A DNA stretch of 64,000 nucleotides, from contig JAPEUD010000039.1 in the NCBI GenBank assembly GCA_026026165.1, positions 1 to 64,000 on the forward strand, written 5' to 3'. The stretch is from Sarea resinae. Lineage: Eukaryota. A model generated the notes under the pieces. It worked only from the letters and a program-made list of their open reading frames with translations. It was not told where the DNA came from and searched no databases. A program made the position numbers and the translations under genes. Below, one piece after another: positions 10,483-53,426 of this stretch (the stretch's first letter is position 1; each line of letters opens with the position of its first letter).

Positions 10483-10515
10483 TTCTATAGTTGCTTCGGC
10501 GACTTGCAGTAATTG
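10483..10515 (+). repeat. Single copy of the dispersed stem-loop repeat (a partial second copy follows at ~10539-10560)
   Basis: TTCTATAGTTGCTTCGGCGACTTGCAGTAATTG is nearly identical to the reverse complement of the 34363 unit. Confidence 0.8.
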
Positions 10516-10558
10516 AGATCTCCGCCTCCTCTTTTCTCTTCTGCAGTTGCTTGCAGCG

Positions 10559-11917
10559 ATGAAGGAAACGTTCGTCTCCGTTCCCTCGAAAGAAATTAAA
10601 TATGTCGGCTTCACTGGGGATGCTGTCACCAGAGGTGTTGACAAGTGGTACTCAGACGACGAACTTGTTCCGCGTGATCGATGAGTTACTGCGTATGATA
10701 TTCCCAGGAAATCTCTGGTGGATACAAACTGACGATTGATTAGCTCCCAACTATAACGACGAGGTTTGGCCGTTTTCTCCTTCTCCTCCCGGCCTTCCTT
10801 CTCTCCGTTCTTCCCCGGCTCTTCCTCTCGATTCTTCCCTCTCCCTCTTTCGGAGCGATCCACCTTCGAAGAGAACATGAGAAACGTCAATGCCAGCGGC
10901 GGCGGCAGTGGCTCGGAAATCGAGGGCGAAAAGACAATCAGACGAGAGGTGAGCAAGATTGTAAAGGTGAAGATGGAGATAGAGGATAGTGAGAACGAAA
11001 GGGTGGCATGGGGGGAAGGGAAAGGTAAGATATTACACTCCTCTGAAACAGGCGGCAATCGGTTAGATGAGCCTAACATTCACTATAGCACCCATTGTGA
11101 TCAGTGATGAGGATGATGACGATAACGATGATGGAAAACGATAGGCCTGAATGCTTTGCGAATAGTATTCTTTACTGATATATTAAATAGAGAGATGACT
11201 CGGGCTTTGGTAGAGAAAGGTCGGTCTTCTCTGCGGCGGGAGGAGCCAGCTCCACCAAGTATGCCCCAGACAAAGAGCACTCAAAGACGTGCCTGGCGGC
11301 GACTACCATCGTCAACGCCAGCGCTAGCGCCACCATCATCGCCACTATCATCGCCATCGCTCCCACCACGACGGAGAAGGATCATCGATATGATGACTGT
11401 TGACGACGAGCAGTCTCGTGGTTTGGGTCGTCCGACGACGGCAACAGCGGTGGTGCCGCAACGGCCGCATCATGCACACCATGTGACATGTGGCCGTGTT
11501 GGGAAAGCACCAAGCGCGACGGTCACAACAACCACGACGATGGTGACGGGAGCGGCGACGGCGACGGCAAGAGCAGCGGCAAGAGCATCTGCGACCTTGG
11601 CGGATGAGGTCAATGGGAAGGGACTGGCACGGAAGTCGCTGCGGAGGGAAGCTTCGCCAGAACCAGCCCCACGGCAAGCACGGCAAGCACGGCTATCACT
11701 GCCATCACTGCCAACGTTGCCGACATTGCTACTACTACCGGCAGGCACAAGATGGTTGACAGGACCGTCACTGTCTCTTCCTCGGGTGCCAGCGAAGAAG
11801 CCGCAGGTCTACAGGAAAGGTGGAAAAGCGGGTGCCTTGGGTGCTGCCAAGAAGAGGATGGCGGAAGAAAAGGAATGAGACGAGGAGTATGCGCCCCCCT
11901 CTAAGAAGAAGAGGTGA
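10559..11917 (+). pseudogene. Low-complexity orphan ORF region (acidic, then Arg/Pro/Thr/Ala-rich), ending in a PPSKKKR NLS-like motif; probably broken
   Basis: ORFs 10766-11107 and 11156-11878 with a frame break before ...EEYAPPSKKKR* (stop 11915-11917); no recognisable domain. Confidence 0.3.
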
Positions 11918-32703: not shown

Positions 32704-33519
32704 ATATTAGCTTCTAAATATACTCTAATATTCTAGGGTGCACTTATAAAGAATTACTATAGATAAAGTCTTCTTTTTAACGTAGAAAGCTAGGAGGAAT
32801 ATGTATAGTCACTTCTCTAGCTAGAAAAGAAGAATATAGACTAGAAGAAATAAGCTATAATTTAGCAACAACGCTCTAGTATGCCTAGGACTAAAGAATA
32901 CTAAGTTCTTTAAGATATTAACAAGAATGTTTAAACCTATAAACTAAGTATAGCGATAAGGCATAGATCTGTGTCGAGTTGCCTATAGTAGTTTAGTAAG
33001 GAGGCAATTCTTCCTGAGCGGCGCGAGTAAACAATGTCGTACAATAGTATGTGTAACAAAGAAGTCGAACCTTGTATGTACTCGAGTATGTACTCGTACT
33101 TTAGTAGAGATTATGTGGGGAAAGGGCACGCTACGAGGCAAGATCTACCTCGCTAGCGTACGCAGCTAAAATCAACGTCTGACCTGTCCCGTCAGCAAGT
33201 AGCCTAAAAGAAGAAGCCAGAGCAGAGTCAAAGATGGGTAATGAAAGAGAGGGAGGGAGAGCTAGGCTATGACTTGGTCAATGAAGCTCAATTGATTGCT
33301 ATCTGCGATTTTAATGCCAGAGAAAGATCAAAGCATGCGATCAAAGTAGAGCCATCCAGCGCGTGAAGAAGAAAAGCCGCCTCTATCAGACACGGGCAGG
33401 AAAGAGAATGTATCCGACAAGATCAGAGCCCTTGGACCAGGCCGACTGCCATGCTACCCTACTCTTCGAACCTAGAGGCGTATGTCAGTGCTACTCTCGT
33501 GTAGTGTTGGCCGATGAGC

Positions 33520-34160
33520 CTACCTTCTCTTCTTGTTCGGCGGCTTGCGCCGCGAACCTTGGTTCAAAGAGCCAGCGGGAGAGCGTTCGCCGGCCGCGGC
33601 GTCTCTGGCCCGCTGCTCGGCTTCCTCTCGGGCTCGCCGCTCTTCTGCCCTCTCCTCTCTCTTCGCCGCTCGGACCTCGCCTTTCCTCTTGTATTTGGTG
33701 ACGTTCTTCCGGCGGCGGCGAGCGGTCTCGAAAGCGGTCTTCTGTGCCACGTGTTCCTCTCGTGGCACTAAGTTGTCGCGGGCACGCTCTATCAAGTCGA
33801 AGTTAGCATCAGCACGATCATTAGAGGACATCAGAACTAACTTCTCTTGCTCCCACGAGCAGACGGTCCTCCAGTCGTGCCAGTCGCCATCTTTGACTCT
33901 TGAGAGTGGCGAAAGGCTGCGGCAGACTGATCTTCCGTATCTCGTCTGCCTTCGTGCTCGCGGATTCCTTCAGGCTCGTCCCAGAAATCGTCTTCCTCGT
34001 CCTCATCGCCCTTCATCAGCATGCTCTCATCTGAGTCCGGGGACTCTAGATAGTGCCCTGAGGAATAGCGGCTTTTGCGCCCATCCTCCTCCGGATCATC
34101 TCCTCCACCAAGTCCGCCCCTGGTGATTCCGGCCCGTTGATCTACTAGGTAGGTCGTCAT
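33520..34160 (-). pseudogene. Orphan charged protein (acidic N-part, Arg/Glu coiled-coil, C-terminal KPPNKKRR NLS-like), split by a frameshift
   Basis: ORFs 33837-34211 and 33520-33831; a diverged partial homologue at 9301-9450 keeps the same reading frame over most of its length. Confidence 0.45.
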
Positions 34161-34210
34161 GGTTGATGTTGTCGAGGGTGCCTTATCCCGTGGTGGAGAG
34201 GGCGAGTCCA

Positions 34211-34630
34211 ATTACTACAAGTCGCTGAAAGCAACTGTAGAAAGAATGGGTAGTGAGGCCGAAGGCGAGGGGTGATGATAAAGATCCGATTACTACAAAT
34301 CGCGAAAAGCAATTGCAGAAGAACGGGAGGATAGTGGTAATGATGATGACGATGAAGTTTCAATTACTACAAGTCGCCGAAGCAACTGTAGAAAGAACGG
34401 GTGGTGAGACCGAAGGCGAGGGGTGATGATGAGGGTTCGATCACTACATATCGCTGAAAGCAATTGTAGAAGAACAGGAAAATGACGTTGACGATGACGA
34501 TGACGATGGTGATGGTGATGGTTCAATTACTACAAGTCGCCGAAGCAATTGTAGAAAGAACGGGAGGATGATGATGATGCCGATGACGATGAAGGTTCGA
34601 TCACTACAAGTCGCCAAGGCAACTGTAGAA
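34211..34630 (-). repeat. Tandem array of six stem-loop repeats, period 74-86 bp
   Basis: Units start at 34211, 34289, 34363, 34440, 34526 and 34600 (+ strand core ATTACTACAAGTCGCCGAAGCAACTGTAGAA); linkers are GAT/GAC-rich and of two related types. Confidence 0.9.
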
Positions 34631-34834
34631 GAGATAGAGCGGTATGAAATGAGGCTTTCGATATCTATTCCGAGTTGCTCCAAGTCTGAAAGACAAACGA
34701 AGCAGAAAATCGGATGGAGACAGGTTGAAGTGGAAAGGAACTGGATTGTGTGTGGACGAACTGGAAGCATGAAGTGTGATGGGAACTAGGGATCGAGCCC
34801 TAAGGTAAGCCACCGAAGCCTTGGAGATCCTGAC

Positions 34835-35018
34835 TGAGACGTTCAACGAAAAGTGACCATGTCAGGTTATTCTCAGTTTCGTTCAGATTTCGTCGAACGT
34901 CTCACGATCGCAAGCGTTTTACCGTCACTGAGGACCCAGCTGTGGGGATGAGACGTTCGACGATATAAGTCCAGAACTCCCTCTGTTGTTTCGATGCACT
35001 TTATCGTCGAACGTCTCA
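34835..35018. repeat. Two 70-bp units, each bounded by 17-bp inverted repeats (TGAGACGTTCRACGA...)
   Basis: 34835-34851 pairs with 34888-34904 (one G.T-type mismatch); 34949-34965 pairs with 35002-35018 (perfect). Both enclose 36-bp spacers with little similarity to each other. Confidence 0.9.
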
Positions 35019-35244
35019 AGGATTTTACCTCGCGGCATCTACAGCACCCACAGCGGCTTTGATATGTTGCAGGTATGACCGTCGAGTGTCTTTACTGGCA
35101 AATCAGCTTACAGATAGCTTGACTCTGATCTCTCAGGATTTCCGTCACTAAATTTACTCTTCATTCCAGCCAATAAAAATGTTAGACTCGACGACGACTC
35201 AACCTGAAAAAATCATGCCTTGATCAACTTGGGCCCAAAAAAAT

Positions 35245-35344
35245 TGGAGCCCTCGGGAGTCGAACCCGATCCGCCTCTATAACAGGTCCTCGCCGAAGCA
35301 AGTCCAGAATTTAAGGTACGTGCCGTACCCCTGGGCCAGGCCCC
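35245..35344 (-). tRNA. Atypical tRNA-like Pol III gene, anticodon undetermined, Ala-type acceptor (G3:U70, A73)
   Basis: GGGGCC-TGGCCCAGGGGTACGGC (A box/D arm) ... TCGGG-TTCGACT-CCCGA (perfect T arm/B box), then GGGCTCCA and a T7 terminator. The central ~50 nt do not form a canonical anticodon arm. Confidence 0.7.
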
Positions 35345-35906
35345 TTGCTTTTGAAAGTAGCTGCTGATTTCACATCTATGACCGCGCACTAATTGATCAT
35401 TAGAAGAGTGAATTTCGTTGGTTGATAGGAGACCAATGAGAAGAAGCTCACAGCCCTGGCTTCATCCTCAGCTTGTCTATCATCACCGTTCCTATCTTCG
35501 CCTCATCCAAATTCTCCACGCCACGTATCATGGCTGAAGCCTTCCAGGTTAGCTGTCATCACTCTTGACTGGCTACGTCACCTCACCTTGTTCATCATCG
35601 ATCTCATCTTGACTTCAAGCATCAATCAGACTGACCATCAATCATTGGATCGAACCATTGCGGAAACTTCCACCTGCCCTGCCACGCGGTCTCGTTGGCG
35701 AGCAATAGACCCATTAAGATTGAGTCCCGCCTTCCCGATCAGAAGCATCACCACTCATCCATTCCGTCAGTGCTGCGAAACTAGACTTTACAGTACAGCC
35801 TCTTTGATCTGTTGCCAGCGGCCGACTCTGGTCAGAGCCGACTCATGCAGTCCTCTGACATCATCTTGCAACTGTGCAGAGGCCAGCAGCGACCAGACCT
35901 TAGACA

Positions 35907-37507
35907 TTGGGACACTACATCCTCTCTGCCCGCGAGAAGCACCCGGGCGAGAAAATCATTGTCTGCGCACCCTCGAATCAAGCGTCGGATGCAATCCTTG
36001 CCAGCACAGACGAGCCGGAGGTGTTCAAAAAGAACGGGGGTAGGCTTTCCTACATACTAGGTCAAATGCCAGGGAGCTTTGGTAAAGCGCTTGATTTTCG
36101 AGGGATAATCAACTCAAAACCGGGATTCTCGCTCAGAGTCGAGTTGTTTCTGCACGGGCACATCGGTTGAATGGCTCAAGGAGAGTTTGAAAGCAATCAA
36201 AAAGGCAAGTAAATTCCTAACAATAACCATCTCCAACTAATGATTTTCTGGATAATGTTAGCTATTGTCGCGCTTCGTCGGGTCGCTGCAGGAGTTCACC
36301 ACAATACGCCTACTACGATCAAACTCCTGGTACTGAATGCAATTACAAATCTGACACGAGCAAACCTTGGTCCAACCAATGGCCAGTCTGGAAAGAGTCC
36401 GCCTACAGACCGGCCAGGCCTTGCTCGATCCAGCGGCTAAAAGTTCAGTGACTTTCATATCAATGCAGCAATTATCTGAATCGGGGAGGAAACAAGGCAG
36501 TTTTTGAGGCCATGACGGACTTGACTAATTTGATGCCATTTGTCGCTCCTTGCATCAAGTGGCAAGAAGGTTCCTCATGACTCGCGCAATGGTGGTGACT
36601 TTTGGTGTGTCGCCTTCCAACATCGGTGCACTAAGGCTTCGGATAATGCCGCCATCAACGAAGGTAAGGTAAGATTGCTAAAGACTCTCGCTAGTGTATA
36701 AAAATGATTCATTTCTCGATTGCTGCTGACAAGTTGCAGATGCCTACCTGTGGCTAAGAAGTGGCCCCACTAGGAACCCCGCCCCACGTCATAAAGAGCT
36801 CGAGGGCGCCCCCGCATCATCAAGAACTCAAAAGACAGGCCCGGCAGGAACAACCATGCGGATAAGGTCGTAGGCTGAGATCTCGCGACCGGCTATCAAC
36901 GCTTCGGCGGATTGTGGGAGGAAGGCTCATACAATTAGGATCACATGCATCAATATCGACCAACCATATCCGCCTAGCAGGCGGAGAATGACAGTCCACC
37001 ACGACCGTACACTAGACCGATATATCTTAGCATCGATCTCTGTCCGCTAACACGGTGTCATTCGTCCTTTTCGGACACCCAACTAAAATGACAACTCATG
37101 CTCGCCATATCACGAAATATCTCTCCACCTAGGATAGGATGAAGTAAGTCGAGGGAAGAGGTATAATTTCTTCCATTGGCTAATGTTGTTTGCGGATGAA
37201 GGCATCATCAAGATCTCCTCCGAGCCTTTCTGTGTCGGCAGTCATCATCCAAGTCGAACAGTATCTTTGGACGCCGACGAGAACAAGATCTATGGAACTG
37301 GTCCTCGACGGTCTTGATACTACACAATGCTACATCAATCCCCAGCCTACGACATCAGCAGTTTCGTGGTCTAGCTTGTTTCATTCGGCTCGTTGCTGCA
37401 TTGCCGAGTCCTCCGCGCATCTCACAAGAGACTTGGGTCCCGCAACACCGCTCGTGAATTTGCCGCTGATCTAGGCGCTTTACCCTACGGGCGACCCGTA
37501 CCAGAAC
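35907..37507 (+). pseudogene. Scattered fragments of a second copy of the SF1 helicase gene
   Basis: 35907-36045 LGHYILSAREKHPGEKIIVCAPSNQASDAILAS matches 39504-39640; 36547-36635 SLHQVARRFLMTRAMVV matches 39656-39745; 37448-37507 PLVNLPLI*ALYPTGDPYQN matches 40011-40074. Order is collinear, with unrelated DNA in between. Confidence 0.75.
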
Positions 37508-38569
37508 ATGCCTATGCTCTCTCTCCCTTGGACCATCTGAACATAGCAGAGCAGCAAGACATTATCAGCCTCGATTGGCAAGAGGCACTGAGCTCAAAGG
37601 AAATCTCAGAAAGAATCCAGCGAGCCTCGTTTGATTTGGACCAAAACGGAAGATCATTACCCGGCTGCCGAAAAGCCTGGAAACAGAGCGTGGCGGATCT
37701 GATGATGGACCGAGGGATCCCTCACGTCCATCCTAAATGTGCAGTACCGATGCTATGCTAGAGCAGCCAGACTAAACACCGCAAAACACGACAAGCCATA
37801 AGGGATTGTTGAGGTTTACACATTCCGGATCTTCGACCGCAAACACCCTAGGGTGGGCCTCGCATTCATTTCAAATGAACCTGCAATACAACGACGTTCA
37901 TTCAATCTGTTGCCACTGCGTTTGACCGTTTTTGATTGCCCACTACCCCAACCATTCACCATACCCATTCATATGTCCCATTCTCCTTTCAGCCATACAT
38001 CTATTTCATTCATCGTATTAGTCACGTCAGCAATCCGTACATCTCCCACTTCAAATATAAAAGGGCTCCCATGGTTGTCTATTCTTTTCCTTTTCCTTTT
38101 CCTTTCTGTACTCCTTCCTGCGGACATTTTAATTTCCACATCAACGCAATCTAGCATGCCATTAACTCATTAAAACCACCTTCTAGGTCTATACCTTAAA
38201 CCATATTCGAACATGGGTCTCATTCTAGTTGGAGATGAGACACAGCTCGTTCCGACAGTCATGTCTGGCCAGTGATTTAACCAATACAATGAAAATGCTT
38301 CGACTTTGGTAAAATCGCTGTTCTCACGACTTCGGGCCGAGAGGTTTCCCACGATTGAATTTCGCAATCTGCGTCAGCTATTGGCTTTCGGGCCTCCAAC
38401 TCTAGATTTGTGCTGCTTGTTAATCTTCAAGCCTTATATATGTGTATCAACGCATACGCCGCCCGTCAGATATTCATTTTTTATCAAAGTTTCCAAAAGA
38501 CGCCCGGAAAGAGAGTATAATGGGCCAAATACTGACTTAGGGAACCTGCACGTCGAACTCAACTTGCAG

Positions 38570-41100
38570 TGCCTTGCCATGCGGGATCGAGAGGCATCCG
38601 AGGCTCCCCCGCCACTGCTTTCCCTTTGGCGACGATGTTCGGCAAGATGCTGAAAATCCGACTTGCCGACATGGATGCAAAGTTGATCCCGCTCGCTCGA
38701 TTTCAGGCCTTGGCGTCGGTAGTCGTTACCGAAGAGTAGAAGATGGCCCGGTACATCACCAGGATTATCAACGCCATCGATGCCGAGTCTGCTGCTCAAG
38801 AAAAGGCGCTAAACGGGGAGAACCGAGATGGCTGCGAGGCTAGGTTCTCTCTGTGGAATGACTGCCTGATCGTGGCACTCGACCCGCCCCCGGGTAGAAT
38901 GACCCCCGATTGGTCCTTCCGGTCTGGACAGCGGCTGGAGTTTGCTGAGCGCGAGCCTGATGCTACCCAGTCCGAGCCCTCCACAGATAAGGGCAAGGGA
39001 AAGGAAGTGGCCGCCGCTGATCCGGAGCTGCTAGAGCGCGTCGAGATCCGTGTCAAGGATTCCATGCCAGTGCCCGGCACCCTCACGGCCGTAGTGGAGA
39101 GTTCTATCGACGCAAAGGTCCGGGAAAGACTCCTGGCAGCGGACGCTTTGCCAATGCGCGTCCAAGTGAAGATCATCTACGAGGATCCCACTGCGGACCG
39201 TAGCTCCGCTGCCTTAAGAAGCTGGCGGAGATCTGGGGTCTCCGACCAGTTTAGGAGCCTGCCGAGAGGCCGAGAGTCCTGCTCGACCTCAAGAGCATTC
39301 TCTTGCCCCATGCCCCTTTCGATCCAAGCCCGAAGCCTCTGGATTATAAAAAGGGCACGGGCACCATAGGGGCGGCAGATATTCCCAACCTCGCCTCGTG
39401 GGGTCTGAATGCCGCCCAGACCGCGGCAATCGTGAGCGGCCAGGCTCCTCCAGGAGGAGTGACCATCGTCCAGGGCCCGCCGGGGACGGGGAAGTCCAAG
39501 AAATTGGGCCACTACATCCTCTCCCTCCGCCAGAAGCACCAAAGCCATAAGATCATTGTCTGTGCCTCCACCAATCAAGCGCTGGATGCAATCCTTGCCA
39601 GCGCAGAGGCGGTGTTCAAAGCGGCCGGGACGGGCTTCCCTGCATGCCGGGTCACCTCCTTGCACCAAGTGGCAAGGAGGTACCTCATGACTCGGGCGAT
39701 GGTGGTGAGTCCGGACGTGTCGTCGTACGACATTGATGCGCTGAGGCGCGACAAAGCCGAGCGTGGCAACTGGGCGCTGTACAAGGAGGGGTTGCGTCAG
39801 CTCGAGGAATTGGGCTACATCAAAGACCCGAACGCTGCCGATGGCTACAGGAAAGAGGCGAGTGCTCTGGCCAAGAAGATCCTTGAGGAGACCGGCATGT
39901 TCTTTGCCACTTGTGGCATGTCCGGCGTCAAGAGCATCCAGTGGCACTACAAGGCCGAAGTTCTCGTGATTGACGAGGCCGGGTTCATCAGAGACCCGGA
40001 CGTCGTCATGCCGCTAGCGGGTGAACATGCCGCTAGTCCAGGCGCTTTATCTCACGGGCGACCCGTACCAAAACGGGCCCGTGCTCCTCACCGCAGCTGC
40101 CGAAGCGGCCTGGAGGCAGCCCATAATGGGCCGCTTGATGGAAAAGCGTCCCGCACCTCCTCTCGACGTGCAGTACCGATGCCACGCAGGCATCGGTGCC
40201 GCAACGAGTCAGGCGTTCTACTAATGGCGCTTTAGTCACGGTCCACCCATCATTATTTACTGGGAGCTTTAATCTTTTCTAACACTAACAAATATTGATA
40301 GAGTCTGTATATCTAATTCAAACAGAATCACTTGGAAAATAGAGGAGGAAAGAGCAGATAAGCTAAAATCTCCTTACTCTCCTGCTCTTTACAACATCAA
40401 TACCGGACAAAATTGTCTAGAACTATTAACTAGAACTATTAACCAAAGCTTCTTTACTATATAGGGCTCTATACTACTTCACGTTAAAGGGCATTACAGA
40501 CTATATGTTAACATATATCTTATAAAGGAGAGTGTAATCTCAATGAATTTAAAGGAAAATACAAAATTTACTATGCGAAAACCTTATAGACTTAAACACT
40601 GGACGGCTTTACATCTAGTGGTTTACATTCTTTAAAATATCGTATAAGACAAAATATACGGTCAGAGCAAGACCGTCAAAAGCACATCGAACGCTTTGGA
40701 GGCGCTGGCGGTCACTCGGTTGGTGGAGGCGGTCCACGCAATGGGGTTTGACTACAACGACATTCTAGTCATAGCCCCATTCAAGGCACAGGTTGCAGAG
40801 CTCTCAAGGGTGGCAGCTGTGACCGGGTGGACCGCCCCCATCAAAACGATCGACAAGGCGCAGGGCGCTGAAGCAGAAGTTGTCATCTTCTGCTTCACCC
40901 GGACCGCAGGCAACTTGGGCTTTCTTCGGCGCGAAAAGCGGATTAACATGGCTACCTCGACAGCTCGAGAAGTATTTTTCATAGTCGGCAACTACGACTA
41001 TATTCAAGAGACCGCGGGCCATCCATTCCGACAGTATCTCAGTGCTCTTAAACCTAATAGGACCACGATCCGCGGAAATCTTGGATGGAAACTCGCTTGA
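38570..41100 (+). pseudogene. Upf1/DNA2/NAM7-like superfamily 1B helicase pseudogene (intronless)
   Basis: Walker A QGPPGTGKS, motif Ia VCASTNQALD, ATC, Walker B LVIDEAG, GDPYQNGP, LDVQYRCH, IAPFKAQV, TIDKAQGAEAEVVIF, RINMATSTAR. Frameshifts at ~39214 and 40017-40020, stops at ~39252 and 40222, AT-rich insertion at ~40250-40658. Confidence 0.88.
40250..40658. mobile_element. AT-rich, TpA-rich insertion (probable RIP-degraded repeat fragment) inside the helicase
   Basis: Abrupt drop in GC between helicase motifs QYRCH and IAPF; includes a tandem CTAGAACTATTAA duplication at ~40417-40442. Confidence 0.55.
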
Positions 41101-41124
41101 ATGTAGTTGTGGTTGCTCGAAGAC

Positions 41125-41540
41125 TTCCCGAGCTCCGCCCGCCGCTTCCCGCCTGCCGTGCCCTGTCCCGCCGCTTCCTGCCTCTGCCGCTTCATGTCTG
41201 TTGCTTCCTACCTATCATCCCCTCCTGCCGTACCCTGCCTTTTGTTCGCTCCTACCGTGTCCTGCCTGTCGTTCCCTGCTGTCGTTCCCTGCTGTCATTC
41301 CCTGCCTACTTCTTCTTGTATCCCCGCTCCGCCCTGTCCCGGCCTCTGGCTTACCGCTCTAAGCCCGTGTGTCTTCTTGTTTCCTCGTCCGCATCCTTCC
41401 TGCCGACCTCCTCCCGCGCCCACCACTCTCTGCCCCGCCTCTCCCTTGCCTAACACTCTCTTCTTCGTCGAGTCACCTCTTACCGGCCCTGTCTCCTCTC
41501 GTCTACCGCTTTTGCCTCTGGCATGCCTCGTTTCGGCGCT
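41125..41540. repeat. Pyrimidine-rich degenerate short tandem repeats (CCCTGCYGTC-like)
   Basis: Repeated cctgccg/ccctgctgtc units with very strong strand asymmetry. Confidence 0.6.
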
Positions 41541-41899
41541 CTAAATTCCATGTTTCTTCTTACCCGCATCTGAAAGCGTAAATCGTCAGCTTCGAGGCGT
41601 GATTCATCAGGCACGGCAGGGCACAAATTGTGAAGTCATTGGAGTTTCTAAAAGCGTTCTTTATATGCAGCATGTTATTTCTTTTTTTTCCTTTCGTTGG
41701 CATCGGGTATTAGGAACTGGGCTTTCTTTATTTCAGCAAATGTACTTTTAGCTAGACTATCAATTTCACGATTTCCTTTTGATGAGAACTCGATACTACG
41801 GAATAGCAAAGATGATCTGTCGGTGAAAGCCAACTGGATTTAGCTACGACTATGTCCGATTGCCAATCTTTCTTGGTCAGGCAATAGTCTGTAGACAAT

Positions 41900-42620
41900 A
41901 GAAGTGAGCCAACACTGTTTAATAACGCCGAAAAGAGCTGTTTGATTTCTATTCCTATCAGAAATTAAAGTAAAAGCCCTTTGAGATCTATATAAAATTG
42001 ACTTTGTCTCACGACATTAGCTAAAGACTATGCAGCGCTTGTAATTCTGATATCTCAATCGACAGGTTTATTACTACGCTAACTATTACATTACACTTAC
42101 TAACCTAAAGTAAGTTTTTAGATTAGTAGGATGATTATATCTATAGTCTAATCTAGTAGTAGTCTAGGTCGAGTTTTTCTGAGCACTGCTACATATAACA
42201 TTTTGCTCGTGTAATTGTAGGTCTAGGCTACATAAACACTAAAAGACATTTAATCTTCTATGTGATAAGAGTGTTACCTATAATTATTACTATCACATCC
42301 TATAGGTGTATGAAACTATGCTGTAACACATGCAAACAGCAACTATAGGTGTATTTCAAGCATATATACGGCCTCAAAATTCACGTGGTGGGTTATTAGA
42401 TATATTTTCCTATCTAGTATAATGTTCTTTTCCTTGTATTCTTTGTTATAACAGTAGTAGATGGATTAGATAGGATTTATTAAAGGGAAATATGTTGGCA
42501 TCTCTTTTTCATTATATCAGGCTGCCTCTAGACTTCGAGCTGTAATGCCACTAATAACGAAGGTAGTAGTGCTCACAGAAAAAACCAAAGTTTTGCCTAA
42601 CGTTCCGCTACATTGATACG
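41900..42620. other. AT/TpA-rich relic segment marking the right edge of the island
   Basis: Low GC, many TA dinucleotides and no ORFs; resembles RIPed DNA. Confidence 0.45.
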
Positions 42621-42825
42621 CGTGTGAAATTGTAATCTGGCCGAGTCAGTTTGATGTGTATTTGATACAAGGCAAGGTCTGTTGTCGCCTCTATGGACAA
42701 GTATATAAGTGGAGAAAGCATTGCTTTAGTTTCAAGCTACTTCGATATCGACAAACGAACGAGCAGACCAAACACTCAAAACGCCCTAGAATGCAATGCC
42801 GACACACTGACACCCACAAGCCCGG

Positions 42826-44696
42826 TCAAACAGCTGGATGAGCAGGCACGGCCTGCCCCCCTGGACCTTCCTTCCCATCCCACTTCCCTTTCGGTTTCCA
42901 GCTCTGCTGCCTCCTCTCGGCCTCGTCGTGATCGTACGTGGCCTCGCTCATGAACGGGCTCCGGCGACGGATCTCAGGTCCCTTGAACAGAAGCAGCACG
43001 GGCACGAAGCTGAGCACCAAGCCGATGAAGCCCAGCAGACTCGAGGCCCACTGATAGTGCAGATTCTTGTAGAGGTCGAAGCTGGCGAGCGGTAGGAAGG
43101 CGCCGAAGGTGTTGCGGCCGAGCGAGGCGGCCGAGAGTGCCGACGCCGCGTATTTCTCGTACGCATCCGCTAGATAATTCACGACGGCCAGGTAGATCGA
43201 GTAGATGCCCAGGCCGACGCAGCCGATTCCCAGCGTTGGCACGATCCATGGCACCGACGGATAGCTGGACCAGCCGTACCAGAAGAGCCCAGCAGTGAAG
43301 AGCAGACTACCGGGCACGGCGGTGTAGAGGCGCGCCTCGGGGATGGGCGTGCCGGGGATTTCCTTGTTGTAGCGGGCGCTGCGGAGGTAGAGCCAGTCCT
43401 GGAAGGGGTTGACGATGGTACCGACAATGGCGCCGGCCGAGATGGCTAGCTGGATCAGCGACGTCTGAAATGTGCTAAAGCCGTAGTTGTTCGAGAAGGT
43501 CTGGCTGATCGACTGCGTGAACAGGAACAGAATGCCCCAGGCGAACGATACCCAGAGCGTGAACGAGAACACCACCCATTCGGTGAAGAGCATCTTCGTA
43601 GGCCGTCGGAAGGACTCTTTCAGCATCTGGACGACGCTTTCTTTTTGGACTTCCGAAGGGGCGAAGATGTTTGTGCGGCCAGTGGATTTACGGAGTTTCT
43701 TTGCGCGGCGGGCGAGGATGACGTCGCCTCTGGTTTCCTTCAAGATGAGATAGAAGATCGGGAGACAGCCACCGTCGAAGATGAGTTGAATATAATAGAT
43801 CCATCGCCAATAGAGATTGCGCTGGATGGCTCCGCCGACAAAGGGACCAAGCGCAATGCCAATCACGGACGTCATGCCGAATATCGACATTGGGATACTT
43901 CGCTCATCGGGGCCCTTCCAGATATCACTGATGGTGCCACCGACGATGTTGATGGACACCGAAGATGCGCCTCCGCCGAAGAAACGTGTCACGACCATAG
44001 TGGCAAAATTCTTCGCTACAGCTGAAGGGACAAGAAAGATCAGGAAAATGATGTATGATATCTAAGTCGGTTAGTATGGACGAAAGGCCAACGTCGCAGG
44101 AAAACCCACAAAGTATCCCGGCATGCGCCCTGAATTCTCAGTCAGAGGAACGAATAGCAGTGGAAATAGAGCGGCGCCAATGTTCCAGGAGGTCGTGGCC
44201 CAGAAGAGCCAGGGGAATTTGGCATCACTGACGTGAAAGCGCTGTTCCATGCCTTCACTACCAGCACCATATGCTCCAGCGGGAAGACCCGTCAAGATGG
44301 AGCTATTTGGATTAGTCTGATGTCCGGTGATGATTGCATGAGAGCTTACATGAAGCATGTTGTGATGGTGAGAATCCATTTTCTCTTTTTCGACCAGTTG
44401 AATCTGTCCCTATATCAGCCCAATGTCCAGTCGAGTGCAAGGGCGACAACATACGGATTCTCGGGATCATTTGGTCCATCCCAGTCGATGATTTCGATAT
44501 CACCATGCTCATTTTCCAGATTATCGACTTCTTTTCCCGAGCCAGGCTGGTCTGAAGAAGCTGTACTTTCTGAACACAAAGGTCAGCTGTGTACCATCCA
44601 AGAGCGTGAGCTCCACAAACCATTTGCCGTAGTATGGGCTTCCTCATGCTCTAGTCTTCCAGCCTCCAGCTCGCTGGCGTCTTTGTATTCGGCCAT
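42826..44696 (-). CDS. MFS transporter, DHA1 (drug:H+ antiporter) type, multi-exon
   Basis: WDGPNDPENP motif, PLTENSGRMP, TRFFGGGASS..GGTISDIW, LGPFVGG, PEARL, YLADAYEKYAASA; about 12 hydrophobic segments. Confidence 0.9.
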
Positions 44697-46079
44697 GATA
44701 AAGAGAAGGTATGGCAGCCACGCCGACAAGATTTGGGCTAAATTCTTTGGAAACGTCTATGACAGCCAAAGTGATAATTCTATTTGCTCATCGAATCCCA
44801 GGAGGTGGGAAACAAAGACAAGGCAAGATAACAGACTGAGTGATAAGACTGGGTAGTCCAAGAAAGAGAAAGAGAGAGAGACGTGCAGCGCGCAAGACAA
44901 TAAGAAAAGGAAAAGCCAAGCCGTCCAGAATATGTCATCGGAGCCAGTGCTCCGAAACTGCTACTCCCGCACTGCCATGGCGAAAGCTCGGAGAGCAGCC
45001 ATAGCCAAGCTGTCGGCGTCCGGAATTCCGTCACATAAAAAGGTGGGAAGCTGGCTCTTAGCTTCTCTAGAGCTGTTCTGACGTCGATGTGATTGTGATT
45101 GAGAGTCAGGCCTATTGCATTCCGGGCTGACGAGTGAGCGGTGCACAGGAAAGTATAGTACCACCGCAAAGCCACCGAAGGCTACCGAAGAGCCACCGAC
45201 TCAGCAAGATCATCTCCCGAGCCCTTCAGGCACGGGCCGAATTTCCGAGTGGATTGATTGAATGCATGGTCTTTGATTATTAAAAGACGAACATATTCAC
45301 ACGAAAAGGCCATGTCGTGGTATTGGAATGGTATGATTGCGATATTTTCCTGGTGTTATCCATAATGCTTATCTAATGATAATCGATGGATACCTTACTC
45401 TACTCGAGTAGTACTGCAGAGTCGAGAAATGACGACAGCCTGTACTGTGTAACTGGCACACCTTAAATCAACGTGGCGGGACATCCTCGGAACTTACTAG
45501 GGACCCAAGGTACGCGACTTGCCCCTAAGCGGTTAGCTTCAACCTCATCGCCTTGGTTCCCGTACACTAGGACTGTTAGTAGATGCTCGTAGACTCCACT
45601 GCTGAGATTACTGATATAGATAGATCTTGCCCCGTCCTTTGATGTTCCCCACCGGTGTTCGCGTTCGAGCATCACTCGACAAGTCAGTCGAGGCTCAGTC
45701 AGAAGAGAGACTTGACGTCTTGCTTCATCACAGTCGAGTTCGGACGTGGAGATGATACTTGTTGCTTATGTGCTGTTGCGCTTTCATCGCATGTTCAATC
45801 GCCTAACGTCACGAACCGTTGTTGGCAAGACCCACCCAAAGAGTGGAAGTCTGACAGAGAGAAAGAAGAGATTCCTTAGAGTAGAGAGCCGCCCGGATCC
45901 TAGGTCCTCTATATGTCCCGTCCCAAATCCTGTCGAAACAGGATCACTACAAGAGAACAGTATAAAATAGTCAACATCAAGGAAAAAGTCGAACGAACGC
46001 CAATCAAATTGCCCAAGAATCCTACCCATGACTGGAGTACATGTCGAGAGAATGAAATGGTAGATATATAGAATTTCGA

Positions 46080-48041
46080 TCAAACTTCGGTTTCAAGACC
46101 CTCTGCCCGATTTGAAAGGCTTCTTGTGCTCGCAGTCTCACTGGCACTAGCCGTTGACGTGTCTTCTGGATCGGCGAGGTAGACTGGAGAGTCAAATTAG
46201 TGTTCGTATGTCAGGAAAACAAGGGAGACACTTACTATGCGGACGGATGAACAGACTGAGCACAAATGCCAGTCCAAATGTCGAGGCTAGACAGATGAAT
46301 ACAGTCTGCGTAAACTTGCCTACCGTAGCACTATATATAAGATTGAAAATGGTCGGCGCCACAATCCGCGCCAGGGCATGTAGTAGACCGGTCGCGCCCA
46401 GTAACTGACCCGTCCGATCAGGTGGAACGGTTTTGGTAAGAGCGGACTGCAGCGTGGGAGAACCGATACCGCCGATGGAGGCGATGGCGCCAGATACGAT
46501 GAAGAGAGGTCCTGTGCGCACGACAGCATAGCCAAGGTAGCCGAGAGTGTCAAAGAGTACGGCCACGCGGATGATGTTGAGATCAAAGTTGTCGGAACCC
46601 GAGTTCTTGTGCCGGCGAGAGCGATCGGGGTGGTTATTTGCAGACCCACTATAGTAGTTGCCGCGGAAGAGGCTGATGAACAATGGTAAGAAAACAAGGA
46701 GAACGAGCACGCGGCAGGTGTTGACTATCGAGACAAAGATGCTGGTTTCGAGATTGCCCCAGCCAAAGGCGTACTCTGAATAGATGACGACGACTGCCAT
46801 CGATCCCATGGCAACGCCGAAAATGGTGGCATCGACGACTGACAGCAACAAAAGATTCCTGCGAAGGGCATGGCTGGAGCCCTCGCCCCTGGGGTAGAGA
46901 ATGCTCAGGGGGGCGAGGAGATTGGCTTCTTTCAGCCAAGAGCGCCAGGACAAGCTGTGGTTTTCGCTCCTCAGAAGGCGGTGCTTCTCCCGGCCTGCGG
47001 CCTGTCGGTCTTTCGAGAGAGATTCAGGAAGGAAGAAGATAACGACAAGAACGAAAGTGGCATGGCAGGCCAGGGCGATGTAGAAGACCGTTAATAACTC
47101 GCCTGTCGCTTTGATGATATACCCTGCTATCACCGGCCCCGCGGCAATGCCAGAAAATAATATCCCATGAAACATGGCAAAAATGACGCTGCGTTTCGCA
47201 GGAGGACTGCAGTCCGAGGCGTACGAATGTGTGACAGCCATGGCGGCGATAAAAGAGCCGCACATGCCATCGAAAAAGTAGCCAAGAAGAATCCAGTTGA
47301 CGGAGATGGTGTCGGGATATGAAGCTGCAATGATGGTGATGACCTCTTCCGCCATCAGACCCGACGTTATCAGGGCCATAACTCTATTCCGGCCAAACCT
47401 ATCCGAAAGCGCCCCTAATTTCGGGCTTGTGATTGCCGAGAAGATTCCGGTGATTAGATTGGCGTAGAGCGTGAACTTAGATACCAACGATTGCACCTCT
47501 GGGATCTGACATTGGGGATTATCGATTCCGAAGATGACGGGCTTCGGCGTAAAGCCATGGTCATTCTTGGATCGATCAGTCAGATATTCTCGGCACACCA
47601 GCGAGAGGATCAGATTCAATTTGGGAACGACGATTCCTCCGTAGGCTAGCGTCGAGAGACAGAAGAGCGGTAGCAGCCAGGCAATCTAGTCGTGCACATA
47701 TGAGAACGGGCCGTTGGATGATTGGGGGATGTTCTCACCGATGGCCGTTTCCACCAAGGCAAGTCCTTGAACTCTGCGGTGCCAGCCCATTCCTGCTCGC
47801 CATCGGACTCGTCACTGAAGGAATTGGAAGAGCTCTTCAACGACGATCGATCTCCCGAATCTGCCAAGAGCGGTGTCCTTTCCGGTTCGGTCAATACGCC
47901 CTTGATCGTCGACGAAGTGCCATGCTCTGCTTGCGGATGATGGTGATGCGAAGCATGATGGGAAGCATGCCGTTCGGCAGACCTCGACCGAAGCTGACCG
48001 TCAACCTCTACATCGGCCGCGAAGACGACATCGTTATCCAT
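46080..48041 (-). CDS. MFS transporter (SLC46/tetracycline-efflux-like fungal family), 3 exons
   Basis: LPWWKRPS, VPKLNLILSLVCREY, PKLGALSDRFGR, SYASDC, SPTLQSALTK..P..TGQLLGA; multiple TM segments. Confidence 0.88.
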
Positions 48042-49067
48042 GGTATTGTTGGGCTACTTTTTTTCCTGAGCATTGGCCAGTTGCATTCAGGACGTCAAAG
48101 ATCCGAGTTCTCGTGAGCGATAAGACCGGTAGCGATACTTGATAAGATATTGAAATTTCCGTCAGCGGAAGTCGACGAATCCAATTATATGCAATATCTC
48201 TCACGCTGTTCGACCACGGTGGACACGCCTGGATTGCATGAGAGATGGGGAAAATGGTGGCGACAGACACGTATTCCGTGGCCAAGCTCTCGCTCTCTCA
48301 ACAAGCGGCCGCTTGTTGGAACGGGAAGGGAAGGTCAGGTCGACGATCGACGACGTAATCTAGTGAGATAGGTATGTGATCAAGTACTTCGTACGGGGGG
48401 GGGGTACCTGCCCCATCTCGAGTTGGCGAATGGCGATTGGTAAGTCGGTGTTCCCCCACGATCCATCCCGCCCCTTTCGACACCAATCCCAATGCTCCTC
48501 AGACATTCTGCGCAGTACTGAGACGCAAGGAAGGAAAGAGGAAAACAGAGGGAGCGAAAGACAGCCCGGGAGGCATGGACCAGAGACGACAGTCACGAAG
48601 AGTATGGACGTAAGGTGCTTTGTATTAGGTAGCATCTGGGCGCCCATTCCACTTCCGACAGACACTCCGTACTTTGTACACCATCTTCCCCAGCAACGAA
48701 GGTGCCTAGCCAAGTACCTCGTACATCGCGATGATCAATTCGCGATCTGCATGTCCTAGTAAGTCGTGCGCCCGAGAAAGGGCTCGGAGATAAGATAACC
48801 ATATGTACGAAACTACCTCGCTCAGTGGACGTCTATCGAGTACATGGATACATTGCTACTCTCTACAAACAAGAGATATGACCATCACCTCGCCGGCAGT
48901 GATACCTGGCCTAGAACAGATCCAACCTCAATTCTTCAGCCCCCAGCCTCTCGACTCATCCTGCGAATGCATTCGGACCCAGCCCGAGAAAGATGGCTGT
49001 CAGATAGCAAAGGAAATCGCTCGCTGACCAACGCAAGAGAAAGCAAGAGAAAGCAAGAGGAGACACG

Positions 49068-50646
49068 TTAATAGCCCTGCTGCCTGTGCCATTTCTCTTC
49101 CCAGCCGGGAAAGTAAGGATATTCGTCGAGGGTGCGCACCTCCCAATCCTTGTCCATCAGTCCCTTTTCCTTTTGCTCTCGTTCGTACTGCTCCATAGCT
49201 GGGATGACGACATGCTCGACATGCCACGTGTTCTTGTACTCCATCAAGCTCTTCTTGCCTTCTTTGAGGACCTTGAGAAGCACGCTCGGGACGTACGGCT
49301 CGTCGCGGAACTCCTCGACGGGGGTGAAGAGGGCTTTGAAGTTGAATACCACGGATGAGGAAAGAGGGAGACGGCGCAGAGTCTGCCAGTCGACACGCAG
49401 GTGGCATCGTGACAGCGGAAGATCGGGCATCTGCTTCATGCGGTGTTCTTCGTGGGGGTCACCGGGAGGCATGAAGAGTGGTTGGTCAATTTCCAGCCCC
49501 CAGGAACCGCGCTGGATAGGGCTGTCTGTTGGCATCTTGGCAAAGTAACTGGTTTTCCCGTTAGGGTCTTGTGCGATGGCAGGGAGGATGGCCACTTACC
49601 GATCCATGGAGAATTGCATCTTCTCTTTATAATCCGGGATGGGGACGTGAATTTCATCCATGCGCATGCCGAGTTTGGTCGCAACGTTCCATCCAAGGCT
49701 GGAGCAGATGACGCCAGATCGGAAGTAATAGTAGCCGTCTTCAGGGTTGCGATATACCATGGCAAAATCCTCGGGGACGTTTTGGAGCAGGACGTGTAAC
49801 GGGTGAGTCAACTTGAGGTTCGTCTCGTTCTTGAGGAGTCCGTTGTAGAAGACGGTCTTGTCCTTTGAGAGCGAGAAATGCTGCGGGTAACGGGCGCAGT
49901 AGAACTGGAGAGCAATTTCCATTATCTCCTTGCAGCCCAGCTCGGTTCCTGGCATGTAGTCGAGAACCATCTTTCCGTACTTGGCAAAGAGGTCTTTCCT
50001 TTGATTCACTCGCTCCACGTAAGTGTTTTCAATTTCGAGCCACCAGTCCGGTTCCATTTTCTTGTACGCTGGTGGAACGTCGTTAGCATAGACTTGGGAG
50101 GTGAAACCATCACTTACACATGGTTTGGTGGTAGACCCAGCGAAAAGGCCTATATGGTCGGGGCAAGGCTTTCTTGATGTCGAATTCCTTGTACGGATTG
50201 GGGAGAGGGACGCCGCTGAGAGTGGGGTAATCGGGAAAATTGCCAAGAGCTCTGGCCTCTTCCACAGAAAACTCGGCGGGGAGGTAGGCGGGCATCGGCT
50301 GTACTTGGTAAGACGCTTCGAAAGGGATCTGGAGGTCGTAGGCCTTCGGATTGGGCTTCAGAGACCCAAGCTTCTTCTTCTGACTCGGTGACATGACATT
50401 TGCGACGACGGCAAGGGTACTTCGGCGCGAAGGTGGATATGTATCTTTGTAAGGGGCCTTGTCATCGAAGGCTGCCTTCTTTGCAGCAGCAAGGTCGCGC
50501 GGCGGGGTAGTGGCTCCCGACGTGCGCCTTCTCTGGAAGGGTACGCGGCTTAGAAGAATGTCTCGGCGGCTCTTGCTCACGGCGAGATAGAAAATGGAGC
50601 TGCAGATGAAGGCGAGGCCGAGACCAAGCATCAAAGGTGACGCCAT
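49068..50646 (-). CDS. DUF3445 family protein (heme-dependent oxidative N-demethylase alpha-like) with N-terminal TM anchor
   Basis: ALPRPYRPFRWVYHQTM / KMEPDWWLEIENTY, VPEDF, IHVPIPDYKEK, IQRGSWG, LRVDWQTLRRLPLS; introns at ~50070-50116 and ~49547-49599. Confidence 0.85.
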
Positions 50647-51823
50647 GATGCTGTTGGTATATATAAAGCGAAAAGGATGAGAGGAAAGATATAGCAGCCG
50701 CCGGGTTCACTTCAGACTGTGGCAATGAGAGAAGGGGCAGCTCGAGATATATATACAATGTCTCGAGAATACTTTCTATACGTCAAGGGAACTTTTACCC
50801 TTCGATAAGGATAGTGCCGAATTAGGGTGGAGTAGAGAGAGAGCCGATCCAGGCACCCAAAGCGACGAATGAGCAGAGGAGCTTATCAGAATGGGAAACG
50901 GTGGGCGAAGATCGATCAATCCCTCGAGGATTCGCCGTGTATATCATGTATGGCTGACCTGACGAAAAGGAACCCTGACGGACTTCCATTGCCCTGATTA
51001 CAGTGGATGTCGCTTCGATTCTGCGCGATAGGCGATGCGACCGGAAAGGAAACGGTACAGGCTCACAGACAGGTCCTTAATGCAGAGGAAGTTGGGTGGG
51101 GGGAGGAGGGGTAGGACTCGAGCGATAGAGGGTTGAGGACTCACAAACTCTCTACGTAGTAGTGAGAGATCCGACATGGAACAACCTTCTATGTAAGGAC
51201 CCCTCCAGCAGCCGCCTGGCCTGGGGTAACAGAGGTCTTCTTCGCCTCTTCCGGTTTAGCGCCTGGGTCCCACGTACTCTTTCCCGATGCGGTAAACAGT
51301 TCCTCCGGTACCTCTCCGATGTACTGGCTCTGCACTGCAGAATCATGCAGCATTCAGACCTTTGTCTCCATCGCCTTTCTCGCCACGGCACGTACGATTT
51401 CTTTTGATAATTTAAAGTCTTTTAGAATCTGTTTGCGAATGCTCTATGTTCAAGTGCCATGCATGTACTCTACCCTACCTGTAACCGTTGACCCTTGGGC
51501 CTACAATCCTGATCCCAATACCTTTCCTATCCACAGTCCGTCATAATCGTCGTGTACCGAAGAGTTGCCAATGTGCTCGAGCGCGCGACCGTCGTGTTCC
51601 CCACAGTCCAGAACACGGCAAAGGAAAATACAACGAATATGATACAAACCACGGTAGCCCTGAGAAGAGAGATTAAAGGAAAGAACGCCTGGAGACCACG
51701 GAGATTCGTTTCATAAATGGAAGAGGGCCTGTCGCCTAGAAGATTCTATTGAAAATCTGCGTATTCGAATGGCAAGCAAGTATCGCTTTTTGTTTCACCA
51801 GTCTGATGTGGCCCAAAGGAAAA

Positions 51824-53426
51824 TCACTCGGGATCATGATCCGGATTCGCGAGCTTTTGCTCATGTTAGCTGTGGTACATCATGAGCGCATATTGAAGCT
51901 TACCCGCAGCACGCGTCTAGAGTAATCTTGATCATCCCTCAGGCTTCTAACGCTGACTCTGCTCGAGTTCTCGTGGTAACGCCAGAACGTCGTAGGATCC
52001 AATCGTTGGTCGACAATGTGTGGAACTTTGCCGTCCGGGCTATGGTCGGGACTATGGCGAGTCACACCTGGACCGAAAGAACTAGTATGGATCGGAGGAG
52101 GGGCCTTTCCAAACCCGCTCAAGAGCCCCGAATCACTCATAGCTCGACTTGGCCTTCTCGAATTGTCGTCCAGGGTCGTCGAGTCTCCAGCCAACATTTC
52201 TGGGTCCTGGTGTCGCCGGCGCCAATAACTGTAGATGACGCTACCGACGATGAGGATGATGATGAGGGCGATGCCGGTGAAAAGGCCCGCTACTTTGCCA
52301 GTATGCGAGAAAAAGCCTCCATCACTCTTTCGCTCAGCATCCGCGGCGGCCGGAGGTTGCGTGGGTGTGATCGTGACGGTTTTGACCTGGCCAGTGACCG
52401 TCATGACCGTCGTCACCGGTGTTGCAGACCATGTTGACGACTTTGAGGAAGTGGACGACGAAGACGACGCTGGAGTGGTCGGCGCAGGTGTTGAACTTGG
52501 CGTCGTCGATGAGGGTGTTGATGAAGGTGTCGATGAAGGCGTCGACGAAGGTGTTGACGAGGCCGAAGAAGACGTGGATGGTGGAGATGATGTAGTTGAA
52601 GAGGTAGAAGTGGTAGACTAATGCAGCGTTAGCAATGATATCTATGAAAATGCCACCGTCACACATCCTCCAGAGAACTTTCTCCATAAGAGATGGGAGG
52701 GGCAGAACCCGTACAGGAGTCAGAATAGAAACAAGCACCGAAGGCGACGCTGTGACCGTCTGTACGATGGTCTCAGGGCTCGGGCTGGGTGAAGAGGTTG
52801 ACTTGGGAGTACTCTGTATGGAAGGCGTCAAAATTGATGTCCAATCAGACGTAGATGAGCTGTCTAGGAAGTGAAGATGCAAGAGAACGCAGATCGAGTA
52901 GAGATATGGGTACTAACCGCCTGACTTGAGCTAGACTGCACAATGCTCGAGGAAGTACTGCTTTGAGCGGCGCTGCTGGATGCACCCGCGGTACCGGAAG
53001 GACTCTTGCTCAGCGCGATATATCCGAAGAGGCTCGAAGACGTAGAACCACATTTGTCCGATGGATAGCCTGGGCAGTTCTGATCACAATCTCCGGTCGA
53101 AGTGGTTCCGGCTGGGATGTAGTTTGAGCACCAACATGAACTGCCTTGCAAGACTGCAAATGCCCAATTGGCCTTGCAGTTGTCGAAACATGCACCATTA
53201 GACTGCCAGATGCTATTGACTAGAAAATGTCAGCATACAAAAGCGTCAACGCAGAAAGTAACATACATTCCGAGTTGCCAGATCCCGTATTTTCGCTGGA
53301 GCAGTACTCGATATTGAGCGCGGCAACGCGATTCCCGGTGAGAAACAGTATAAGAAATAGTAGAATCGTAGGGTAAGCTTTGACTTGGAGTACCCTAGGC
53401 CCCATGTTTGTCCTAGAGGACCTCAT
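51824..53426 (-). CDS. WSC-domain cell-wall stress sensor (Wsc1/Slg1-like)
   Basis: Signal peptide, WSC Cys pattern (YCSS..., QGSSCWCSNYIP...C...CPGYPSDKCG), Ser/Thr tract, TM helix, cytoplasmic DQRLDP and SLRDDQDYSRRVLR.ANPD tail. Confidence 0.9.

Follow-up and report, generated by a model that had tools for sequence, protein, structure and literature searches.

A lineage-restricted hairpin repeat arrayed upstream of three open reading frames in Sarea resinae, tentatively read as an RNA cassette

Does a short hairpin that is repeated upstream of several genes act as RNA, or is it a DNA repeat that happens to pair? The question is raised by a 64,000-nucleotide stretch of Sarea resinae DNA (the window), for which an original prediction, made from the letters, described a ~30-nt stem-loop arrayed at three loci and proposed an undescribed structured-RNA cassette. 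The window comes from the nuclear genome of a filamentous ascomycete. Its proteins include Ku70, ferrochelatase, a GH47 mannosidase, MFS transporters, an AAA_11/AAA_12 helicase and an inositol-phosphatase-like protein, and one of its proteins is identical to a public entry credited to a Sarea resinae genome bin. Judged by its sequence, the hairpin repeat family in this window is real, previously undescribed and lineage-restricted.

The hairpin-forming motif occurs in 12 copies within the 64-kb window, all at three places and at no others. Its core measures ~26 nt, or ~45 nt including the flanks, and the aligned copies give the sense-strand consensus YGTTCTTT-CTACA-GTTGC-[4-5 nt loop]-GCGAC-T-TGTAG-TAATYGAAC. 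The core forms an imperfect hairpin of 5 bp + 5 bp that has a U.G wobble and a bulge of one base; YGTTCTTT precedes it and TAATYGAAC follows it. The copies are arranged as follows.

34205-34640, minus strand: array 1, six tandem units of 74-86 bp each
34215-34240, 34293-34318, 34367-34391, 34444-34469, 34530-34554 and 34604-34628, minus strand: hairpin cores of array 1
10473-10519, plus strand: array 2, full copy, core 10485-10509, 51.2 bits
10529-10566, plus strand: array 2, partial copy (CTGCAGTTGCTTGCAG, 10541-10556), inner stem missing, 29.4 bits
62015-62221, minus strand: array 3, tandem part, three 80-bp units with cores at 62025-62049, 62105-62129 and 62185-62209, 49.1-58.2 bits
62220-62383, minus strand: foreign insert in array 3, an 81-87% copy of an S/T-rich exon of the gene at 52454-52629
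62403-62449, minus strand: array 3, fourth copy, 5' arm lost, 39.2 bits

Array 2 as a whole, with its one full and one partial copy, spans 10473-10566, and the fourth copy of array 3 is split from the third by the inserted gene fragment. The bit scores come from a covariance model built from the 12 copies, which by construction recovers those 12 at 29.4-60.1 bits (50.2-60.1 bits in array 1); the best window match beyond them reaches 13.3 bits, with an E of 0.38. The strict pattern TCTACNRYTGC-N4-5-GYGRYNTGTAGYRAT has 7 matches in the window, all of them in arrays 1 and 3 and on the minus strand, and none in 100 dinucleotide shuffles, which makes the motif far commoner in the window than chance. 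This pattern was used in place of an earlier, looser one that was unselective, giving 10 matches (3 of them real) vs 5.3 expected. TRF reports a period of 74-77 at 34207-34630, where start-to-start spacings are 78, 74, 77, 86 and 74, and a period of 80 at 61987-62221 (81% matches). By BLAST, array 1 matches array 2 at 94% over 35 nt (E 7e-10) and array 3 at 83% over 36 nt (E 5e-5); only a core of 35-40 nt is common between loci, and the spacers are unrelated. Pattern, covariance model, BLAST and TRF together place the predicted motif at all three loci, and the proposed fold, CTACA-GTTGC[loop]GCGAC-T-TGTAG, can be read directly in the sequence, as can its five loop variants and the three double changes named at the time. 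The copy counts first given (6, 4 and 1-2) are in keeping with the 12 copies, but the fourth copy of array 3 is without its 5' arm and the copy at 10541-10556 without its inner stem.

Within arrays, conservation takes two forms. A unit alignment of array 1 shows the hairpin and the adjoining TAATYGRA to be clearly better kept than the spacers. The units of array 3 are conserved evenly along their whole length and in this respect resemble recent duplicates.

On the sense strand, that of the adjacent open reading frame, 108 of 115 stem cells (93.9%) are paired. None of 500 shuffles reached the observed number of paired cells, the number of double-change cells or the covariation score, and 15 of 500 reached the observed number of pairs with a double change. 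When the partner was slid by 1-3 columns, pairing fell to 24-56%. RNAalifold returned the same 10-bp hairpin, with pair 26-42 in place of 26-43, and a double change in 5 of its 10 pairs.

Pair 27-41: GC to AT, in A1_2 and A1_4
Pair 28-40: UA to CG, in array 3
Pair 23-46: UA to AU, in A3_3
Pair 24-45: AU to GC, in A2_2
A26-U43 to C26-G42: in A3_2 and A3_3 (RNAalifold)

In A3_3 both half-sites are altered jointly, from CTAC/GTAG to CAAC/GTTG. A3_4 has the G at column 42 but an A at 26, its 5' arm being non-homologous. Reading the stem copy by copy, we infer about five compensated events, with single changes of which five keep a wobble on the sense strand and about 2-3 disrupt it. The stem-breaking single changes on that strand are A-C in A1_5, A-C in A2_1 and C-U in A3_1; two changes convert Watson-Crick pairs to wobble. 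The bulge is present in 11 of 11 full-length copies and the U29.G39 wobble in 10 of 11. The loop takes five forms of 4 or 5 nt (TTCG, CTTG, TTTCA, TTTTC and TCTA). The outer arm is conserved in sequence as well, its successive pairs being CG in 11/12, UA in 10/12, AU in 9/12 and CG in 10/12 copies. A third outer helix, GTTC/GAAC, was not adopted (70.8% paired, with register shifts).

With the numbers of stem changes taken as read here, a crude neutral simulation put the probability of a compensated pair in all four lineages at 3e-5 to 1e-4, values that serve only as a rough guide because the lineages were picked after the data had been seen. The pair-preserving changes are, moreover, few events inherited by tandem copies, which are related by descent and are not independent. 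One of them, GC to AT at pair 27-41, could have arisen without selection, since both arms share a CpT context and C-to-T on both strands suffices; the path to the AT pair may have led through an A-C mismatch on the sense strand of the kind seen in A1_5. Having set out these limits, we would note that the hairpin is real and that some process has kept its pairing better than chance. The shuffles and the simulation bear out the prediction that pairing was kept through double changes, but the events are few and inherited, and one is explicable without selection.

The two strands differ in how well they fold. Antisense pairing reaches 79.8% of 114 cells, vs 93.9% for sense. Summed over the 47-nt units, folding energies are -141.8 kcal/mol sense vs -102.0 kcal/mol antisense, and on the sense strand 6 of the 12 reach z <= -3.2. 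Taken as RNA, the ten intact cores sum to -85.6 (sense) and -47.8 kcal/mol (antisense), and as DNA to -33.3 (sense) and -18.7 kcal/mol (antisense); single DNA hairpins reach -1.7 to -4.9 kcal/mol on their better strand. By calculation, sense RNA forms hairpins of moderate stability, while those of DNA are weak. In addition, the 500 nt upstream of the array-1 ATG fold with a z of -3.48, and none of 100 shuffles folds as well. Array 3 contains adjacent U.G/G.U pairs; such tandem pairs are tolerated in RNA and poor in DNA. On the calculated energies and the pairing, RNA of the sense strand is favoured over a hairpin or cruciform of DNA. The bias between strands consists mostly of one inherited U.G pair plus a split of 5 vs 2-3 single changes that is not significant. 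Furthermore, the sense A-C mismatches in A1_5 (pair 27-41) and A2_1 (pair 24-45) are G.T on the other strand. The sense fold is indeed the better one, as predicted, but with two copies giving opposite evidence, pairing 'on one strand only' is a tendency and not a rule.

We next consider position, for which the downstream open reading frames are needed.

33520-34160, minus strand: gene after array 1, P0049, 198 aa (annotated elsewhere), acidic then basic
10559-10684, plus strand: open reading frame after array 2, 41 codons, candidate only
60250-61774, minus strand: gene after array 3, P0001, 425 aa, function unknown

The full copy nearest the start codon ends 54 nt short of the ATG at 34160 in array 1 and 49 nt short of the ATG at 10559 in array 2, whose partial copy ends 2 nt before the same ATG. 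For array 3 the distance to the ATG at 61774 (minus strand) is 250 nt. This array stands equally upstream of a divergent plus-strand gene, its fourth copy lying ~308 nt from the ATG at 62757. Two upstream ATGs fall between array 3 and the ATG at 61774, and three sense-strand ATGs in the whole upstream stretch. Because the 250-nt gap holds these two upstream ATGs, array 3 may belong to a promoter and not to a leader. At each of the three loci, pyrimidines make up 64-68% of the sense strand. In array 1 this strand has 1 ATG vs 5.0 +/- 1.8 expected (P 0.02); ATG depletion at arrays 2 and 3 is not significant. The motif is sense to a neighbouring open reading frame each time, as had been proposed, but array 3 lies between two divergent genes, and the same orientation in 3 of 3 arrays has a chance probability of ~0.25.

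The three loci had also been described as preceding orphan genes. This does not hold for the 61774 gene: P0001 has 48 relatives across Pezizomycotina (E <= 0.001) and belongs to a conserved family. Among 1.84 billion representatives, P0049 has no relative except one low-complexity match, and no relative was found for the 41-codon frame at 10559; on sequence comparison, orphan status is shown for the 34160 gene alone. None of the three downstream frames has a Pfam domain, and comparison of Pfam and relatives revealed nothing recognisable in common between them.

Relatives of the motif itself were sought more widely. It matches no family in Rfam 15, and in the whole window only a 5S rRNA gene at 8787-8906 passes threshold; a permissive scan of arrays 1 and 3 gave as its best hit SNORD64, on the opposite strand, at 23.1 bits vs a threshold of 40. 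The comparison with Rfam that had been suggested thereby agrees with an undescribed motif. The strict pattern has no match in metagenome contigs and one lone bacterial match in prokaryote genomes of 185,579 species, which we take to be chance. The motif is absent upstream of P0001 relatives in 21 metagenome loci (112,026 bases; best 14.7 bits, E 0.26), where no comparable tandem array was seen either; these loci have best-segment identities of 30-67% and full-length identities of at most 52%, the 67% being one partial match, L020. This absence argues that the motif is not an old regulatory feature of the P0001 gene. Three sequencing runs of one study were compared with 33400-53399: the likely source run matches the window exactly, and the two others gave only microsatellite and scattered coding matches and are for that reason unusable as relatives.

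On this evidence we tentatively put first, short of calling it probable, a young, lineage-restricted hairpin cassette that acts in the 5' leader or in upstream transcripts. Copies of the core would have landed at a few pyrimidine-rich sites shortly before start codons, and at each site core and local spacer would then have been amplified together by unequal exchange or replication slippage. The hairpin would be read on the gene-sense strand, and the likeliest form is RNA, belonging to a 5' leader or to an upstream transcript, where an array would offer several copies of a single stem-loop. A lone hairpin is probably too weak to block a scanning ribosome, which makes multivalent binding of a protein the likely mode. 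Such a protein would recognise the geometry of the stem (bulge and wobble) together with the conserved single-stranded flanks, and its binding might tune how the message is translated, how stable it is or where it is located. That the arrays are transcribed, that a protein binds them and that the genes are affected are all things that we infer from the letters. Sense-strand RNA would explain, in one scheme, the wobbles, the energy gap, the free loops, the single-stranded flanks, the pyrimidine-rich linkers and the orientation.

Almost as likely as the RNA cassette is a DNA repeat, selfish or structural (foldback, MITE or Helitron-end-like), with no role as RNA; we regard it as a serious possibility without thinking it likely. 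Copying would proceed perhaps via a single-stranded hairpin and a rolling-circle type enzyme, followed by tandem expansion, and pairing would be kept by the copying machinery's need for a hairpin or by template switching between the arms. A core of 35-40 nt as the only part common to the loci is what would be expected if the core alone had inserted, and the lineage restriction of the family suits such a repeat. The source run contains at least one further contig with a copy in a different flank (insertion 34618, loose end 34604), which points the same way, but extra copies at >=80% likeness are few in that run. The main support for a DNA-level reading comes from the small rearranged duplications around the arrays; among these are pieces of the helicase gene, a piece of the array-1 gene and the 164-bp insert of array 3. 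By BLAST this insert matches the 52-kb gene at 81% over 164 nt (E 2e-42). It starts at the boundary of the source exon, and its junctions show microhomology, with 6-7 nt identities to the repeat unit (TCTACC and CTTCGTC). The source gene at 52454-52629 is on the minus strand and is WSC/Mid2-like by a protein-atlas lead only. What is seen suits a region with a tendency to template switching or to small duplicative insertions.

Which DNA element might this be? Fungal Helitron2 elements are reported to have terminal hairpins with GAA loops, to be able to stand in tandem and to capture gene fragments (PMC5148889). The plus-strand loops here (CGAA, TGAAA, GAAAA and CAAG) and the gene fragment within array 3 resemble these features of Helitron2 or Helentron elements, and favour a DNA repeat to that extent. 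Such elements have asymmetric terminal inverted repeats with a hairpin at either end, and their autonomous copies carry a Rep-helicase gene. Here each unit has one hairpin, no termini can be defined, and neither an asymmetric terminal inverted repeat nor an ATTTT or CTRR end was found. Among the window ORFs scanned there is no Rep/helicase ORF of that type and no transposase ORF, the only helicase kind in the window being AAA_11/AAA_12. A MITE or foldback would have terminal inverted repeats flanked by a target-site duplication, and many dispersed copies; here the whole element is one imperfect palindrome, and the single-copy locus 10473-10519 shows no readable target-site duplication, nor a terminal inverted repeat or a 5'-TC/CTRR-3' end. 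A canonical Helitron 3' end has its hairpin 10-12 nt before CTRR, with 5'-TC at the other end of the element; it was rejected here, the sequence after the hairpin being TAATYGAAC, or AAAGAACGG on the other strand, with no CTRR.

As to how arms could be kept alike, template switching is reported to be frequent in yeast promoters, where the arms of inverted repeats are homogenised (PMC13100816). The imperfect repeats studied here, with arms that change together, are similar to those of yeast, which again suits a DNA repeat. However, arm homogenisation would erase a bulge and a wobble, and unlike in those yeast repeats both are kept in nearly all copies and wobbles have been gained; the two changes from Watson-Crick to wobble likewise oppose arm correction. 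The weakness of the DNA hairpins, at -1.7 to -4.9 kcal/mol, counts further against an element copied through its hairpin.

A neutral minisatellite is unlikely. It would be a duplicated ancestral quasi-palindrome, with compensation owed to chance, descent or symmetric repeat-induced point mutation. Inheritance of few events by tandem copies accounts for most of the counted cells, the CpT context in both arms accounts for GC to AT at 27-41, and the even conservation of array 3 is as such a repeat would have it. However, 4 of the 5 double changes are not of the C-to-T type, the simulation gives P of 3e-5 to 1e-4 across all four lineages, the hairpin of array 1 is better kept than its spacer, and the core can be aligned between loci where the spacers cannot.

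Even less probable, in our estimate, is a promoter array of duplex DNA, in which palindromic sites for a dimeric transcription factor (CTACA / TGTAG, perhaps TAATYG) would have been amplified to raise or tune expression. All arrays lie upstream, array 3 between divergent genes; the outer arm is well conserved in sequence (9/12 to 11/12); and the three loci within 64 kb resemble a co-regulated set. CT boxes occur in promoters of filamentous fungi, and the sense-strand spacers are CT-rich. A protein that reads sequence would not, however, predict the joint half-site change in A3_3 or the covariation of the inner arm; spacing varies with a loop length of 4 or 5; the strict T29/G39 asymmetry and the bulge are atypical of dimer sites; and an imperfect palindrome of ~44 bp exceeds the usual ones. 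Transcription-factor and Pol III consensus motifs were also compared by eye: PacC, Myb, E-box, STRE, Gcn4, homeodomain TAAT and the B box each fit some copies only, and GGTTCGATCAC-like strings occur on the antisense strand, again in some copies only. ARAGORN finds no tRNA in the window, and a tRNA-derived element or Pol III unit was rejected. A coding tandem repeat is ruled out by the periods of 74-86 and 80 bp, with frames shifting between units.

Returning to the hairpin cassette, we asked what it is like. Bacteria offer well-known cases of short, spreading hairpin repeats that are present in transcripts, and the arrays may be likened to REP-like palindromes and to multi-copy hairpins of untranslated regions. 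To our knowledge, few such hairpin repeats are known in fungal nuclear genomes; our literature search returned no fungal nuclear example, the results being in part organellar palindromes. Bacterial REP sequences and BIMEs are imperfect palindromes of 25-45 nt with variable loops and GTAG at the base of the stem; they form clusters with short linkers, are intergenic, have one preferred strand and are found in transcripts. The present repeat is alike in palindrome size, loop variability, GTAG stem base, clustering, intergenic site and strand preference, all of these read here from sequence alone. Unlike REP, it resides in a eukaryotic nuclear genome, its units are direct tandems where REP alternate in orientation, its arrays stand upstream of genes where REP stand downstream, and no RAYT-type gene was seen.

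The mRNA of the transferrin receptor offers a second comparison, with five iron-responsive elements that are spaced small hairpins with a conserved bulge and covarying stems. The arrays share with it several spaced copies of one bulged hairpin, here in a putative leader. Unlike the loop of an iron-responsive element, which is a conserved recognition feature, the loop here varies freely, and the motif has no Rfam match.

A third comparison is with Ssd1 sites of fungal 5' UTRs, which are reported to consist of CNYUCNYU and an upstream structural element within 4-10 nt, often in multiple copies (PMC8934651; 10.64898/2026.08.03.741543). A pyrimidine motif beside a small structure, in several copies, is common to both. 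CNYUCNYU abuts the hairpin in 3/6 copies of array 1, 1-2/4 of array 3 and 0/2 of array 2. Unlike at Ssd1 sites, where structure precedes motif, here the motif precedes the hairpin, and the downstream genes are not cell-wall genes. An Ssd1 binding site was rejected, with the motif beside only 4-5 of 12 copies and the order reversed.

One could carry the RNA cassette further, to a mobile 45-nt hairpin that enters the leaders of unrelated genes and multiplies there, is bound by one hairpin-binding protein and so builds a growing post-transcriptional regulon, a eukaryotic counterpart of REP. This would be an attractive analogy, and we give it little weight. If the arrays are transcribed and bound, they would show the origin of a new cis-regulatory RNA element, its movement to unrelated genes and its amplification, and a fungus would have in them a natural multi-hairpin tag. 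Should they be DNA repeats and nothing more, they would give a clear warning that pair-preserving changes in a quasi-palindrome are not proof of RNA, and the gene-fragment insert of array 3 would mark such palindromes as sites of template switching.

Several features of the surroundings deserve description in their own right. Arrays 2 and 1 face one another across an AT-rich island at 12.6-33.0 kb (GC 0.32-0.45), which has a weak aspartyl (retroviral) protease signal and two nested pairs of direct repeats, 12987/32391 at 96% and 16415/27944 at 95%; we read it as probable decayed nested LTR retroelements. The 5S rRNA gene at 8787-8906 is dispersed, on the minus strand (80.7 bits) and 1.6 kb from array 2. 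Near it, 9188-9445 is a mosaic of two gene fragments head to tail, one from the helicase and one from the array-1 gene. The first, 9188-9291, shows 85% likeness to 39440-39543 in the helicase gene (Walker A region); the second, 9290-9445, resembles 33657-33822 in reverse, at 75%, a stretch made up of the intron end and exon 2 of the array-1 gene. The AAA_11/AAA_12 helicase also exists as a decayed copy at 35902-37519, in three pieces that are 75-80% identical, the intact gene being at ~38.7-41.1 kb.

In array 3, a predicted ORF of ~71 codons (MESSFSSGRTLLLSTTSTTS...) runs on the minus strand at 62195-62422. Its ATG is inside the truncated fourth hairpin, and it crosses the captured S/T-rich fragment and stops in copy 3. 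Derivation of the motif from the transmembrane-coding part of the 52-kb gene was rejected, BLAST giving only the S/T-rich fragment and (GAT)n.

At 35230-35345, on the minus strand, stands a tRNA-like unit whose T arm is perfect (CGGG-TTCGACT-CCCG) and precedes seven T; it scores 17.2 bits vs the Rfam tRNA threshold of 29 and has no ARAGORN call, and the 12-mer TTGCTTCGGCGA is common to its inserted part and the hairpin core. Finally, an identical 15-nt (AGGT)n-like string occurs at 10208-10222 and 61894-61908, in opposite orientation relative to arrays 2 and 3, and is probably a microsatellite coincidence.
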